Shown: positions 3,001-9,000 of the stretch, in pieces
Numbering within the stretch: the first letter of the stretch is position 1
How the letters are laid out: each line of letters opens with the position of its first letter
Assembly (NCBI RefSeq): GCF_030013205.1
Contig: NZ_CP122649.1
Length of the DNA: 64,000 nt
Origin: Escherichia coli
GTDB taxonomy: Bacteria; Pseudomonadota; Gammaproteobacteria; Enterobacterales; Enterobacteriaceae
Direction: 5' to 3' (one strand)
Position numbers: made by a program

Positions 3001-6000
3001 GAATGTCTTGCTCAGCTTTAAATCCGATAACTCCCCCGCCTTTTCAGGCCGGGGGGGTTATCTCTTTAGTGTTTATTTACGTTAAATCCTAAACAGATAA
3101 TCCGATTTCCTTCGTGAAAATCACCTGTTATTCAGGTTTTTTTTACGGCTGAGATGCTTGCTCAGTTTAATAAATGTGCGATACATCTGGCTACGGTCGG
3201 TTGTATGACATGGTATATCCATAAAACTTAAAACCCCTGACGGGAGTATTACCGTTAGGGTGATGCTCATCGTTAAATATCGGAGAGCATTGTTATGAAT
3301 ATTGAAAATCAAGATTTATTTAATACGTTCGCTGCTGTGATTTCATCTCATATCGTTGAGCAACCATCTTCGTGTTATTACCTTCATGATAATGAAATTG
3401 ACTTCACGATTTTAAAACACAGCATAATAGATAAAGACAAAAACCTGTTGTACGTTATTCGTCCTTCAGGAACCTGTTTGTTGCGTTGTGATAAATACTT
3501 CTTTCCGAATTACTATCTTACAAGTCGTGGAGATTATAAAGCATTTAAGTATGTGCATTTTAATCTTGCAACACGAGAAGCGGAAGAAATCACCTGGCAG
3601 CAAGCTTTTGAAATTTTGTCCAAGCCGGGAAGACCTCCATTAAGAGGTTCACTTGGTAAATTTGATTATTTAAAACTTGTTATTGATGATCTTCGTGCGC
3701 GAGGGTATGCCGATTTCCTTCCAGCATACAACCTTGATGGCCTTCGTCACTTTGCAGTAAAGGATGAGCGACCATCACTTGTCAGTTATATCGACAATGT
3801 CATGGCACTTTGCGCATAAAGATAACACATATTTTTACTACATCCCTGATGGCACCTCCCATCGGGGTGGCCCTCAGAGTTGAATCTGGAGGTCTTATGA
3901 AATTAGCTACAGATCTGGTCAATGCGGTTCTGATAAAGAATGGCATTGTACCAACTTCCATTAATGAGTTGCCTGTAACGTCGCTGGTAAAGCCATTGAC
4001 ACAAGTGCATCTCAGCCTGTATCTGAAAACAACGCATTTATCTCAGTTCGTCCCTGACTACGTTGAGTCTCTGAAAGATTGTCCGGTTTCGTATGATATC
4101 GGCCTTGAACTTCAGCAGTGTATCAACAGTGCTGAATTGCTCTGTGAAGACATGGAGTCACTTGAGTTTATCTCTGTATGGATAGAGCTCTATACGTGTA
4201 ATTCAAAGCAACAGCGGTTTGAGAAAAGTAACTTTTCTTTTCGAACTGAAGATATCGAGCTGGCTAAGATGCTGTCTTGCTCGCATGAAATCTTAATAAG
4301 TCAGGCGGCTTGTTTCTGGCTTTTGTATTTTGAAGATTTCATGAAATATGTTCGTAATAGGCTCTGTGCATTACTCAGACAGGTTTTAATTTTGATTGCA
4401 GGACTGCGAAATGTATACCTGCAACGGAATGAAGATCAGTTGATTAAGAGAGTTAAGCACGGGAATGAAATGCTGGAGGTGACTCTTAAAGCTGTTGCAC
4501 TATGTTCAATAGAAAGGTATCTGAAATCATATGCCTCTTTACGAACAGAAGCGGCGGCTTCTGGGTTTATCAAATGCATTCAGTCTTATATCAGTACTGG
4601 TTGGAGACATGGCTATATAGTCTGTCAATATTCAAAAAATGGACGGTCTCTTGGTAAGTCATTACCACTTTTTATAAAAGAGACATCTGAGCATAATATA
4701 CAGAAACGTGTCAATCGCCTTATATCTTCCACGATTTCGGGGCGAAATAAAGATTTAGGTCTTTACGATTTCTGATTAACATTACCCATCCGGGGATTAC
4801 ATCCCTGATGGGTGTAATCCCATTTTTTATTTAAGTGAGGATTACATGAAAATTATTGAGAAAATCATTAATGCATTTCTGATATCGCGTAAACATTCAG
4901 TGAAGGTCAGTAATGTTATCTGCTTGAGTGGCACCGACGGTAAATTTACTGGAATATGCTGTGACGCCGATGTTTCATTTGATTTTCTTTATTCGTATGC
5001 CCCCGCATACAGTTCAACATTTTTAGATATCCCGTTTCCTGGGTTTGAAGACCAGGACATCGCGGATTGTGTTAAATGTCAGTTAGATGTAGTTAAAAAT
5101 AAACGGAATCGGTCTTTTTTAATTGACCATATTAGATTTCCAGTTTCCTCAAGGGAAGGATTCACTCTGACACGCGGTGATAGTTACGACGTGACTGAAT
5201 GTGAATATAATAAGGAACGATTGCTACATCTGACCCGACAAGGACGTTTTTGTGAAGACTATCTCACGTTCAAGGATGGCCTGAGTTCCTTCTTTTCATT
5301 TGTGAATTTCGAATTACATGAAATAGTGAAGGAAGGTATACGTTTGGCACTTGATGTTTTAAACAAGATTACATCTGATCAACCAGACCGTCTTATAAAA
5401 GACTTTAAGTATCATGATTGCTTCGGCAGTTATAATGTACAAATATTTTCTAAGGGTCTGCCAGTTGATATCCTTGAAACGATGATTGCACCTGATAGGT
5501 TGTTGTCTAACTTGTCAGGTAGTCGTCAGATTATGAAAAATGCAAGTCGCTATCTTAAAGGCTTTGCCCTCAGTAATCGTGTTTACATGAAATACGGATG
5601 GCGTTTAGCAGATGTTGACACATCTGACTATGCGAAAGTTATGTCAGATAGAGAAATGCATGCCAGAGATGATCTTAAGGCGTTTTGCAGTGTCTTTTTT
5701 AAAGAGTGTTTCGCATCCGGAAAATATGAATACGAAGCATACCTGAGTGAAAGACAACACGCGATTCGTAACGGGTATTAATACTTATTATCAACTTATC
5801 TAATCCCTGAGGGAATTCTTCCCTTGGGGAGGATTCCCTCTTAACCGAGGGCTACAAAATGAAAGCGATTTATAAAATAATTGAAGCGATGCTGGTGAAA
5901 ATGGGCTTTGAAGGTGCCGTGATCCAAAGTGTCAATCTGGAAACGGGTGTGATTCAGAGTCTAGTTGTTAAGGCTGATATTCCTGTCCGGACTTTAATGC

Positions 6001-9000
6001 CGCATTTAAGGCGATATCTGCGCGATTGTGAGCCTTTATGGGGACATGACGTGGATTACCACCCTATAGCACAATATTGCTCAGGAGCTGCGTTGTTGAA
6101 GGCTGGGCCGGTCACTCTTGAAACCTTTCGGTTTGAGGTTTCAGTGTCAACTGCTCACCTGCGGCTTGTGGATGTTGAGCCGGACTGTCTAAATGAGGGT
6201 GTGAACCGTGAAAAACTGGAGTATGTATATTACCGCTCCAGCAATGCAGACAAGGATCTAATACTTGGTATGGTTGAAAAAGGACATAATTTTATCAACC
6301 ATCTGCATGAACTTTTACGCTCGCGCTTATCAACGGCTTTGCCGCTGATTTTCGCAGTTACAGAAAAGATTGCGGAGAGTTCAGTTCCACAAGTAGTCAC
6401 CAGCTTTTTCAGTGTTGACCATCAAATCAATGCCCAGATAGTAGTCGAACCTGTACCCGTTTCAGTCGCAGACCAGATAATTTCTGCTGACTGGAATGTG
6501 TGTAGTGTTTCAGGAGCGGATAAGTTCCTGAACCATGTTAATCGTTATCTGTCGGGTAGGGTGATGAAGCGGCGTATTTACGCTGTTATAGAAGCTTGCG
6601 ACGGTGGATCTTTATCCCTCAATGCGAACTTAGGTTGCTTTACATCACCTCTTCTCGTAACTGAGTATAAAATGGTTCAGTCACACTCTTCATCGCTTTA
6701 TCGAAAGGCTATAAATAACTCGCTTAAGCAAGTTAATTCGTATGCTCCAGAGCATTCAGATGACCTGCTTTCTATGTAATTAATTTTACCCATTGGGGAA
6801 GCGTATTCCCCGTGGGGGTTGCTTCCTTTCTTCATTAAAGAGGAAGTGAATATGTTTAATGAAAGTGATGATAAAAACTTTGTTAGTGCAATGCTTAAAT
6901 GTCAACTTGGCCTGAATATAAGCCAAGAGGATATTACAATATATGACAAAGAAAATCATTTTGAACAACTTTCTTTTAAAGCAAATGTGGCGCTTGATGA
7001 TTTGTTATTTTATCTGGATTTATATATATCAGAATTGATTAAGCATAATGCGCCGTATTCTGAAACTGAAGTCCTTCGGACTAAAATCAAATACTTTCTT
7101 AAAGTATATGAAAAGTCTGGTTTTCAGAACATAAGAATTCGCGGTTATCATAACGCGCACAGTACTATAGATATTGTCGATATCGCATCATTAATATTGG
7201 CGGGGTCTGTACCGGAGTCTGAACATGATTCAATAGATCCTGTTTTAAGAAAGGAAATCTATCAAAATCGCATGAGTGTTGAGGGTAAAGTTCTCATTGC
7301 CCGTTTTGCACTTAAGCAATTTTTCCATTCTGATTTTGGTGATTTCATCTTAGAGTTCGAGAAAAGTATCTCCAAGTGTTTGAATACTTCTCTCCAGATA
7401 ATTAAATCTGTAAAGAACTCATTTAACCGTTTAGGTCAATATCAATATCAGCGTCGTGTAAAAGATGACCTGACTTTGCATCTTGATTTGAATACAGATG
7501 AATACCCGGCCTGTATGCCAGACCTTTACATCGGTTTCAAGGAGTCTGAAGGGACGACGGGAGTGTATCGCGATGATGAAAAAATCATTCGTCTTTATAC
7601 TGGCGTTAGTTCCGGAAAGGATGTTCCTGTAATGATGACCGTTCGATTCACTGGCTGTGACGGGAGTGTTTTGTCTGAATCATCGCACGGTACTTTCTGT
7701 TCCGTGGGACCTACCGGCCGAGTGCAGGTTTGTGACAGAGTTGCGTTGGTCCAAGAAGCGGTCGAAGAGTTACGGGATGTTGTTTAACCCTTGTTTTTTA
7801 CCTCTTCATTCCAAAAAGTAACTTTGTTCTACCAAATGACCGCGCTACCTATTCTGATCAACTTGCAGGAAAGAATGGCGCAGTAGTACATATTTTTAAT
7901 CCACCCACTGGGGAAGTCGCTCCCCTGTGGGGCACTTCCTTTAATAATCCTGAGGAAGTGAAGATGACTAATTCTACTGATAACCAGAACTACGTTCGTG
8001 CAGTACTGGCAGGCATTGGTATTGATTTTGATGAAACAGAGATGTTTATCAGTGTCTCTCATTGCCAGAGCGACGAAGTTTCGTTTACATGCAGTATATC
8101 AGCCAGTGAGTTAAGAGAATCTGCGGGGCATTATGTGGATACTCTTAATGATACCCAACTGGCTGGCCTGGATGCGGATGCACTCAAGAAGCGACTGGTT
8201 TACTTCCTTGAGGTTTTCGACCTGGTTTCCGGTCAATATCTGGATATTTCCGGTAAACATTTCGCGACCAGCCGCTTTGAATACGACGATGTCTGTAGTG
8301 AGATCCTGAGTAACTCTGCGGACAGCGCCCAGCCAGGTGGCTATGATCGTGAAGAGTACAAAAGACTGATGGAAGTTGATGGTCAGGTTTTAATCGCCCG
8401 ATTTGCACTGGAAAAATTCTGGGATACGCATTTTATTGGGCTTATCAACTATGTATCAGATGAAATAACATCCGGGCTTTATGAGGTTTATCGCACGTTC
8501 AGTGATATAAACATGGCCGGTTATACATTTAGTGAGTATTCATATACGCGTCGTATTACCGACGAACTTAGTTTGCATATTTCACTTAAAGAGGACGATT
8601 TCGAAGAGCAATTAACCGATTGTTATATGGATGAAACAACGCTGCCGTCTGGCAAGGTGGTTTTACGCCGTAATAATGAATCAATTATTGGGATTTATGA
8701 AGGATATGCTTCAAAATCTTACTTTCCTATGGTTGCTAATGTTAGAGTCCTTGATACAGATGGTGAAGTTGTTACTGAACTTTACCAAGGGGTGAATGTA
8801 TCAGAATTAGCTGGTGGTCGGATTAAAATCCATGACCGTCAGGAATTAATTTCTGAGGTGTTCGCTAACTTACGTGAATTCATCCCAGCATCAGAGGATA
8901 AAATCTTTGATGCGGCATGAGTCCTGAAGGTTGAATTATATATTTTCAGGTTTTTATACTTCTAAGAAGGCACGGTTATCCGTGCCTTTTTTTTTGCTTT

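Follow-up and report, generated by a model that had tools for sequence, protein, structure and literature searches.

What are the GC-rich palindromes that stand before six consecutive genes, g1 to g6, in a stretch of Escherichia coli DNA? The stretch (contig NZ_CP122649.1 of assembly GCF_030013205.1; 64,000 nucleotides, here called the window) carries these genes on the plus strand at positions 3295-8920. The original prediction took them for six paralogs of a diversifying family that had retained a common leader and N-terminal motif while the protein bodies diverged. We found that the leaders are copies of one operon-wide RNA module, present before at least 12 cistrons of two adjacent operons, and are not a relic of duplication. 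In this module the Shine-Dalgarno (SD) sequence is sequestered, an alternative fold is selected, and the two folds are energetically balanced. The module probably represents an uncatalogued, widely distributed family of bistable translational attenuators, and we consider it a more important result than the proteins that it precedes.

Positions 3000-9100 of the window are 100% identical to IncHI plasmids such as pMAK1 (NC_009981; typed IncHI1A and MOBH), the whole segment is carried by 282 plasmid records, and by this likeness the region is IncHI1 plasmid backbone. Modules are labelled here by the cistron that they precede, u1 to u9 for the upstream gene run and g1 to g6 for the genes in question.

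Folding of every intergenic region of the gene run in pMAK1 revealed a two-hairpin layout before u2, u3, u4, u6, u7, u8, and g1 to g6 (12 leaders), and the module is kept in IncHI1B and IncHI2. The module is about 60 nt long, ends at the start codon, and comprises six alternating C-rich and G-rich segments: arm a (ACCCA); the mimic m (GGGGA and a gene-specific tail that mimics the SD flank); b (UCCC); a' (UGGGU); the anti-SD x (the complement of the tail and UCCC); and the SD, which is separated from x by an AU-rich loop and carries the same gene-specific tail as m, followed by the AUG. Since m mimics the SD region, x is able to pair with either. In state A, the minimum free energy (MFE) structure, hairpin 1 (segment 1 paired with 4, enclosing 2 paired with 3; 25-33 nt, with the gene-specific mimic as its loop) is followed by hairpin 2 (5 paired with 6), and the SD and often the AUG are buried. 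State B is a single long hairpin (2 paired with 5, enclosing 3 paired with 4) that cannot coexist with hairpin 1 and in which the SD and an AU-rich standby stretch are free. An H-type pseudoknot, in which the outer stem and the m:x helix would exist together, was rejected on geometry from the sequence: because the linkers are only 0 and 1-2 nt, it would be sterically impossible and the helices mutually exclusive.

A covariance model was built from six leader types (22 aligned training leaders). The modules of the window are listed below with their scores (energies in kcal/mol).

1387-1455, plus strand: module before the 73-aa gene; a 1387-1394, m 1395-1406, b 1407-1413, a' 1414-1419, x 1420-1430, SD 1443-1451, ATG 1453; covariance model 48.2 bits, E 3.5e-10; MFE -29.6, z -3.83
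3235-3297, plus strand: module before g1; hairpin 1 3235-3260, mimic in its loop 3242-3251, anti-SD 3261-3269, SD 3282-3292; MFE -29.0, z -5.93; cognate mimic:anti-SD duplex -7.4; kept in IncHI1B and IncHI2
3844-3899, plus strand: module before g2, the weakest member in this lineage; hairpin 1 3844-3867, anti-SD 3868-3878, SD 3885-3895; MFE -26.2, z -2.53; cognate duplex -10.9
4784-4848, plus strand: module before g3; a 4784-4790, m 4792-4801, b 4802-4806, a' 4807-4813, x 4814-4822, U-run 4823-4830, SD 4835-4845; covariance model 57.7 bits, E 1.2e-12; MFE -30.7, z -5.77
5803-5861, plus strand: module before g4; a 5804-5809, m 5809-5818, b 5819-5824, a' 5825-5830, x 5831-5840, SD 5847-5853; covariance model E 0.0018 although outside the training set; MFE -26.1, z -3.1; cognate m:x -15.4
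6788-6854, plus strand: module before g5; a 6788-6793, m 6795-6803, b 6806-6811, a' 6812-6819, x 6820-6829, SD 6839-6849; covariance model 62.4 bits, E 7.5e-14; MFE -28.3, z -4.0
7903-7966, plus strand: module before g6; a 7904-7908, m 7910-7918, b 7920-7925, a' 7927-7932, x 7933-7941, SD 7951-7960; covariance model 61.2 bits, E 1.5e-13; MFE -31.6, z -5.1

The GC-rich elements had been placed correctly from the outset: a strict CCC-N-GGG-N-CCC-N-GGG pattern occurs five times in the 64 kb, against 0.42 expected, and all five lie within 1387-7932. The palindrome before the gene at 1453, proposed to be related, is a module that folds better than shuffled sequence, and the pairing with the ribosome-binding site (RBS) that had been noticed in some leaders extends to all seven, in each of which the 3' hairpin contains the SD. 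Relative to dinucleotide shuffles the seven leaders gave z scores of -2.5 to -5.9, and the SD or the start codon is paired in the most stable fold of every one of them, as it is in the 12 pMAK1 leaders. The leaders of g5 and g6 are the most similar pair.

The leader alignment and covariation analysis that the original prediction had suggested showed that both folds covary. Across 44 aligned elements, with state B tested on an alignment that had not been fitted to it, 83.4% of cells were paired in state A, which showed 129 double-sided changes (54.8 +/- 7.2 in shuffles) and a covariation score of 0.356, compared with at most 0.125 for slid partners; in hairpin 2, 8 of 10 pairs had double-sided changes. 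State B had 51 double-sided cells (30.7 +/- 4.6 in shuffles), and its score of 0.263 was the highest of all registers. Cognate m:x duplexes averaged -11.0 kcal/mol and non-cognate duplexes -5.9, a preference reached in 0 of 100,000 permutations for the IncHI1 and IncHI2 sets and reproduced in each of the loci L001, L002, L003, L007, and L009 with segments defined by the covariance model (Photorhabdus, p 0.0014; Shewanella, p 0.0056). Mimic segments were defined from the MFE fold and then from the covariance model; automatic three-segment detection with RNAduplex on raw leaders was dominated by the arms of hairpin 1 and was replaced.

Individual substitutions follow the same pattern. In the g3 leader a triple compensation converts GGGGAUUAC / GUAAUCCC / GAGGAUUAC to GGGGAUCAC / GUGAUCCC / GAGGAUCAC in IncHI2, and where x changes at positions not paired with the SD, the compensating change is in m alone, the g4 leader being an example. 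The structure belongs to the sense strand, because G:U pairs, which would be A-C mismatches on the other strand, are frequent. With the SD absent or occupied, the energy of state B minus that of hairpin 1 was -0.19 +/- 3.55 kcal/mol (n = 41 elements), and the difference was within 3 kcal/mol in 25 of the 41; with the SD available, state A is favored by the 8-12 kcal/mol of hairpin 2. State A thus wins only by the energy of hairpin 2, hairpin 1 and the state-B hairpin being iso-energetic. When arm a was blocked, the MFE structure flipped to state B in 10 of 22 elements.

The leader proved not to be tied to the array of presumed paralogs. The same module precedes the AAA ATPase, DUF3150, vWA, and 73-aa genes, and in IncC it precedes ssb, bet, and exo, so that the idea of a leader and N terminus retained together during divergence does not hold: the module is operon-wide and stands before unrelated genes, and the N-terminal motif is the first helix of a predicted fold. 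The covariance model found the g4 and u7 leaders, on which it had not been trained, and copies in Photorhabdus, Klebsiella, Shewanella, IncC, and Pseudomonas plasmids (the IncC and Pseudomonas matches with filters off), and its full-length plus-strand matches end at a gene start codon wherever checked. The DUF3150 protein of the module-bearing Klebsiella plasmid is 40% identical to that of IncHI; in a Shewanella aestuarii plasmid, where this identity is 19.5%, the module precedes at least 12 genes, including ssb and genes for an AAA ATPase, DUF3150, and a vWA-like protein. In IncC plasmid pR55 the model matches the leaders of ssb, exo, and others, and a Pseudomonas MOBH plasmid is matched as well. 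Conservation of the leaders in related plasmids had been proposed as a check, and they are conserved in related and distant plasmids alike. The covariance model had no match in the window from 9 to 64 kb, and no Rfam family fell on the modules, either at the gathering threshold in the window or in an E-value search of positions 1-9600.

Two observations concern the spread of the module within operons. In a Photorhabdus tasmaniensis contig (L007), different small genes and a fragment of g6 only are found where IncHI1 and IncHI2 have g1 to g5, and high-scoring ACCC modules precede those small genes at 8246-8312 and 9527-9592 (E 4e-10 and 2e-13). Because the replacement genes are preceded by modules, new cargo in the operon would appear to come with a module or to acquire one. 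In pR55 (L010), the AAA ATPase and DUF3150 leaders, at 8752-8817 and approximately 13585-13652, are near-identical over about 65 nt (AAAUUAACGUUAAUUUACUAGCCCAACCGGGCGCAUCCGCCCGGUUCGGGACGUGGUGCGCC), a module duplicated within one operon; the duplicated stretch may be connected with short repeats described by Roy et al. as Bet/Exo repair substrates.

We propose, with a probability of roughly 0.6, that the module is a per-cistron translational attenuator combined with a latch, acting on g1 to g6 and on the upstream operon. In state A, with the SD and often the AUG buried, translation would be off, and in state B, with the SD and the standby stretch free, it would be on. Opening of the SD or occlusion of arm a would allow the mimic to capture the anti-SD strand, and the RBS would then stay open for a time. 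The most likely opener would be a ribosome terminating just 5' of arm a, which would give a coupling that outlasts the ribosome's departure; a second possible opener is the brief window before the SD is transcribed, during which nascent RNA might partition into state B. The positions of stop codons are consistent with the first of these. Of 12 junctions, 7 have the stop codon 1-12 nt from arm a, and for several junctions in Shewanella and IncC the distance is 0-1 nt. Stop triplets are enriched as well: 38 of 41 modules have one in the 10 nt before them, where 25.6 would be expected.

Several points weigh against this proposal. In 3 of the 12 junctions the stop lies 20-26 nt upstream, and g1 and g6, with gaps of 214 and 116 nt, have no open reading frame (ORF) ending nearby. 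At equilibrium, masking the footprint of a ribosome at the annotated stop (stop +5 or +10 nt) raises the predicted accessibility of the SD in few modules, and even with all of arm a masked only about half of them gain. The equilibrium advantage of state A over state B is about 8-12 kcal/mol, and for this reason state B would have to be reached kinetically or with help. The covariation counts mix related orthologs and paralogs, and the shuffle statistics overstate independence and are not probabilities. Behind the state-B hairpin, half of the modules have at least five U in 8 nt, which fits transcription attenuation too.

Other triggers were considered and rejected. A mini-ORF or leader peptide running from the NUG of arm a' over the anti-SD varies in start type, frame, and stop across IncHI1, IncHI1B, and IncHI2, and small upstream ORFs that end by hairpin 1 of the g1 and g6 leaders are present in some lineages only. 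An RNA thermometer was dismissed on thermodynamic prediction, by which the unpaired probability of the SD shifts by less than 0.03 from 22 to 42 C in 7 of 7 leaders. No riboswitch aptamer core with invariant unpaired nucleotides was found in the aligned leaders, whose invariant columns are the paired C and G triplets, and no Rfam riboswitch was matched.

We also entertained a wider scheme, which we think quite improbable, in which the module is a self-resetting latch or timer of MOBH elements (IncHI, IncC, SXT-like, pCAR1-like, and Shewanella) and g2 to g6 are diversifying anti-defense cargo. Given the equal energies of hairpin 1 and of hairpin B, which frees the SD, a nascent or just-visited transcript would be briefly translatable and would then relax into the SD-sequestered state, and each cistron of the host-defense-evasion and establishment operons would be translated in a short burst in a new recipient.

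The U-runs raise the alternative that the module attenuates transcription, state B and its U-run forming an intrinsic terminator and hairpin 1 the antiterminator; a falling transcript gradient would result, with the SD pairing of secondary importance. Among terminator-like matches the top one is the state-B hairpin of the g3 leader (12 bp at 4793-4821 and then AUUUUUUAUU), which has the form of a textbook terminator; in the IncHI2 DUF3150 leader state B is a 14-bp hairpin ahead of U8, and one Shewanella leader has U9 with state B as its MFE structure. At least five U in 8 nt follow x in 21 of 41 modules, and positions 1-9600 of the window hold a surplus of terminator-like sites (17 against 7.5 +/- 3.1 expected). 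Half of the modules, however, including the g1, g2, g4, and 73-aa gene leaders, are without a usable U-tract, whereas the x:SD pairing and its covariation are kept in all; hairpin 1, being transcribed first, would normally pre-empt state B; and the SXT member is described, in the account cited in PMC4542580, as a translational attenuator on a highly transcribed message. We regard transcription attenuation as a plausible but unlikely explanation of the family. A trans-acting factor, namely a plasmid or host RNA-binding protein or a small RNA (sRNA) that reads the ACCC...GGG core of hairpin 1 as an operator and switches all cistrons together, would account for the module on cistrons such as g1 and g6, where the lack of an upstream ORF defeats a ribosome trigger, and would suit the finding that the equilibrium footprint model explains few modules. 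It would also fit the invariance of A1, C2, C3, and C4 in the 22 training leaders, the ACCC with which 33 of 42 plus-strand model matches begin, and the similar conservation of the paired G triplets from Enterobacterales to Shewanella. This identity of the CCC and GGG triplets is, however, already demanded by multi-partner pairing, as segments 1, 3, and 5 each pair with two of 2, 4, and 6. No conserved unpaired nucleotides or bulges like those of protein sites were seen in the leaders, no RNA-binding protein emerged as a candidate present in every lineage, and no Rfam sRNA lies in the region; we give such a factor a low probability.

The view from which the analysis began, that leader and N terminus are relics of serial duplication in a diversifying effector or anti-defense family with a signal in its first 20 residues, draws on the tandem arrangement and extreme divergence of the g2-g6 paralogs described below, on the close likeness of the g5 and g6 leaders expected if a leader were duplicated with its gene, on the accessory nature of these genes (missing in a Klebsiella IncHI1B-type plasmid, mostly replaced in Photorhabdus), and on the presence in the upstream operon of a homolog of the AAA ATPase of the IncC host-defense-evasion locus. 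It is difficult to reconcile with the same module standing before unrelated genes in many plasmids, with g1 being no paralog, with the lack of any match for the paralogs in PADLOC, PHROGs, or Pfam, of any significant PDB match, and of any kinship with Vcrx090, and with the packing of the N-terminal motif as a confidently modeled helix, and we consider it doubtful. The least probable reading by far is that the palindromes act as DNA, as recombination or cassette-boundary sites or as hairpins of single-strand transfer (priming, single-stranded DNA promoters). Hairpin 1 is a near-perfect palindrome and therefore scores on both strands, the gene content between modules varies across lineages, and a tyrosine recombinase and the toprim protein are encoded nearby; yet the module in its full length keeps to one strand and invariably ends at a start codon, the anti-SD covaries with the SD and the many G:U pairs would be A-C mismatches on the opposite strand, gene order is stable across IncHI1 and IncHI2, and there is neither an integron-type core (GTTRRRY) nor an adjoining integrase/attI arrangement. 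An array of integron attC cassettes in particular was rejected: the cores are ACCC...GGGU and not GTTRRRY, the elements lie 5' of genes and contain the SD, the sole tyrosine recombinase is over 5 kb away on the downstream side, and the order of genes does not change between lineages.

Single members of the family have been met before in MOBH elements. The bet leader of SXT was called a "strong translational attenuator" by Garriss, Poulin-Laprade, and Burrus in 2013, as cited in PMC4542580, where a strong drop in the translation of a highly transcribed message is reported. In IncC plasmid pVCR94, Roy et al. (2020; PMC7498323) predicted a structure that sequesters the RBS of vcrx089, the first gene named in the operon vcrx089 (an AAA_5/CbbQ_C ATPase)-vcrx090-ssb-bet-exo, which confers evasion of host defense in the recipient (PMC7498323). 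Individual members have therefore already been seen, and one has been tested. The likeness extends to gene content, as these too are MOBH operons with AAA_5 ATPase, DUF3150, and vWA genes, joined in IncC by ssb-bet-exo, and to structure, as the IncC ssb, exo, and bet leaders are matched by the covariance model built from IncHI and have the same mimic/anti-SD/SD design; in the three-way design of the IncC bet leader, state A has -36.2, the m:x duplex -17.5, and state B -25.6 kcal/mol. Judged by the accessible literature, they differ in that single leaders are described, whereas in IncHI a family stands before nearly every cistron, and in that the IncHI modules have a second, covarying, iso-energetic fold that frees the SD. 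With the 2013 primary account of SXT outside the comparison, the accessible literature held no description of the family, its deployment at each cistron, the second fold, the IncHI copies, or the g1-g6 operon, and a transcriptome paper on R27 (PMC7366339) held nothing specific on these genes.

The proposed latch can be compared with translational coupling by unfolding, as known for rpmI-rplT, genes VII-IX of phage f1, and the coat-lysis pair of MS2 (reviewed in PMC12548453). In these pairs, and by prediction in the modules, a downstream RBS is silenced by structure; in most module junctions the upstream stop likewise lies close to the structure, and the module's stop-to-start distance of 50-80 nt resembles those of rpmI-rplT (+52) and engineered f1 VII-IX (+62) (PMC12548453). 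In classical coupling the upstream ORF itself contains the sequestering strand, which is opened directly, whereas the anti-SD of the module lies 3' of the stop and its displacement would be indirect, through exchange of strands with a mimic freed from hairpin 1, an effect that could outlast the ribosome. Refolding after the ribosome leaves is the kinetic weakness of the unfolding model (PMC12548453), and because a new ribosome must beat that refolding, capture of the anti-SD by the mimic would solve the problem. The modules also recall riboswitches, trp-type attenuators, and the metastable hok mRNA of plasmid R1, in which mutually exclusive helices share a strand, one segment encodes both an SD sequestor and a terminator-like alternative, and the outcome depends on folding order; they differ from these in that no aptamer-like core, leader peptide, or antisense RNA was found, and in being about 60 nt long and repeated at internal cistrons rather than placed once at the 5' end. 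Repetitive extragenic palindromes (REP) and bacterial interspersed mosaic elements (BIME) are likewise GC-rich palindromes between same-strand genes in AT-rich sequence, whereas the modules always point the same way, lie at a set distance from the start codon, include the SD, and are limited to two operons.

Elements of the IncHI, IncC, and SXT types rank among the major vehicles of multidrug resistance, and among the genes of the module-bearing operons are some through which, as shown in IncC, the plasmid survives restriction and CRISPR attack on entry. If our proposal is correct, one RNA device over nearly every cistron would form a shared regulatory layer of plasmid establishment and a possible common target. 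The module would also be a natural example of a relay that could keep an RBS open after its trigger, addressing the weakness of the unfolding model, and it defines an RNA family missing from Rfam that is usable for annotating such operons. The neighboring g2 to g6, a narrowly distributed and structurally unmatched family beside defense-evasion genes, are candidates in their own right.

What, then, are the six proteins? Their predicted coordinates agree with the genes that RefSeq annotates in pMAK1, each of them as "hypothetical," and the statement that they belong to no recognized family is borne out by the lack of any match for g1 to g6 in NCBIfam, PHROG, PADLOC, and Pfam.

3295-3819, plus strand: g1, 174 aa; backbone gene, outside the paralog family
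3897-4775, plus strand: g2, 292 aa; member of the paralog family and its weakest link
4846-5781, plus strand: g3, 311 aa; paralog of g4
5859-6779, plus strand: g4, 306 aa; modeled with AlphaFold2
6852-7787, plus strand: g5, 311 aa; paralog of g6
7964-8920, plus strand: g6, 318 aa

The collinearity proposed for the last two genes is confirmed over their full length (27.6% identity, E 1.7e-38). Profile-profile comparison and structure prediction, the checks suggested at the outset, extended kinship beyond this obvious pair and excluded g1. By hhalign, g3 and g4 are related with a probability of 91.7% (E 7.7e-7, 235 columns from residue 1), and g2 aligns with g5/g6 at a probability of 35% (E 4e-4), over 171 collinear columns from the N-terminal motif onward. 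In local hidden Markov model (HMM) searches among 23 neighboring proteins, other members of g2 to g6 were always top-ranked, and g2 was the top non-self match of the g5/g6 HMM. No similarity of g4 to g5/g6 was detected by hhalign; kinship between them is probable from the modeled folds. The AlphaFold2 model of g6 is confident (mean predicted local distance difference test score [pLDDT] 88.5, predicted template modeling score [pTM] 0.82) and that of g4 acceptable (pLDDT 75, pTM 0.73), and the two have helices and hairpins in the same order. In Foldseek searches of AFDB50, the g4 model matched orthologs of g6 and g5 (E 6.6e-4 and 9.1e-4), both models matched a Salmonella protein of 292 aa, the length of g2, and both matched shared uncharacterized Enterobacterales proteins of about 260-310 aa, some of them labeled NgrC. 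These last are similar over their whole length (E 1e-9 to 1e-5, template modeling score 0.5-0.67) at a sequence identity of only 10-17%, and the name NgrC carries no function. Among solved structures in the PDB there was no convincing match to the g2-g6 fold.

Judged from these comparisons of sequence and modeled fold, g2 to g6 are a lineage-specific five-member expansion of one protein of about 300 aa, its copies probably very old, whereas g1 is, by the same measure, a backbone gene unrelated to them. The claim of six paralogs therefore stands for g2 to g6, with g5/g6 and g3/g4 as clear pairs, g2 as a weak member, and cross-matches of fold between them, and fails for g1. The shared N-terminal motif fares similarly, corresponding to helix 1 of the common fold in g2 to g6, with g1 unrelated; the suggestion that the first 20 residues form a transfer or localization signal finds no support, as this helix is modeled as packed within the fold (pLDDT 86-93). 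Membership of g1 or of the u1-u9 proteins in the paralog family was rejected for want of any similarity, local HMM searches included, and kinship of g2 to g6 with Vcrx090, the 302-aa partner of the IncC anti-restriction ATPase, was rejected after hhalign found none.

A g1 ortholog (29% identity, E 1e-14) lies directly after toprim in a Klebsiella IncHI1B/FIB plasmid (L008) that is without g2 to g6, and in Photorhabdus the g2-g6 block is mostly swapped for other genes. Because they are absent from the one and largely replaced in the other, g2 to g6 would be accessory cargo. No known defense or anti-defense family matched g2 to g6 in sequence or fold (PADLOC, PHROGs, NCBIfam, Pfam, and Vcrx090). 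The u4 AAA ATPase has a homolog in pR55 (28% identity, E 9e-27) that is in turn homologous to vcrx089, and genomic context alone suggests an anti-defense role for g2 to g6; from their position, a role in establishment or anti-defense is a reasonable guess.

The region is placed after the Tra2 genes trhU, trhN, and trhI, within a long same-strand gene run made up of u1 to u9 (the AAA_5 ATPase, DUF3150, vWA, 73-aa, and toprim genes among them), g1 to g6, and further genes toward tus. An IncHI1B-type plasmid, at 86% DNA identity, has the same gene order, as do two IncHI2 lineages at 66-67%. The g1-g6 operon is directly 3' of the IncHI counterpart of the AAA-ATPase/DUF3150/vWA/toprim operon, and two hairpins mark the boundaries.

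3038-3058, plus strand: terminator-like hairpin after the toprim gene, marking the end of the upstream operon
8964-8991, plus strand: intrinsic terminator ending the g1-g6 operon, a 12-bp stem followed by T9

Because a hairpin follows toprim and a canonical terminator follows g6, g1 to g6 look like one operon, which would begin with a promoter region behind the toprim terminator and close with the terminator at 8964-8991. The spacer between the toprim hairpin and the g1 module is 213 nt in the window and 214 nt in pMAK1. Over the 6.1-kb segment, window and pMAK1 differ only in the G-run of the post-toprim hairpin (window 3021-3060), which has 7 G in the window and 8 in pMAK1, and the extra G shifts the offset between window and pMAK1 coordinates by 1.

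The toprim gene has a leader of another type, in which a GC hairpin (1685-1704) is followed by a 15-bp perfect outer stem (window 1715-1770; GUUGUGGGUUUCUC...GAGAAACCCACAAUG) that buries the annotated ATG at 1768 (MFE -53.7). This leader is kept in IncHI2, Klebsiella, and Photorhabdus plasmids, and the RefSeq starts of toprim vary by lineage between the ATG within the hairpin and one about 21 nt downstream. An 11-bp palindrome, AAAGTWACTTT, is present in eight copies in the window against 0.02 expected (471, 4225, 7815, 12659, 19653, 27346, 52031, and 53545) and also at 10996 and 11009 of locus L001. Two neighboring copies lie in the 397-nt region 5' of the first gene of the upstream operon and one inside the conserved 116-nt spacer between g5 and g6, and the palindrome may be a binding site for a plasmid regulator. 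The sole Rfam match in the window at the gathering threshold is RNA-OUT, the antisense RNA of IS10/Tn10, at 57386-57455 on the minus strand (97.3 bits).

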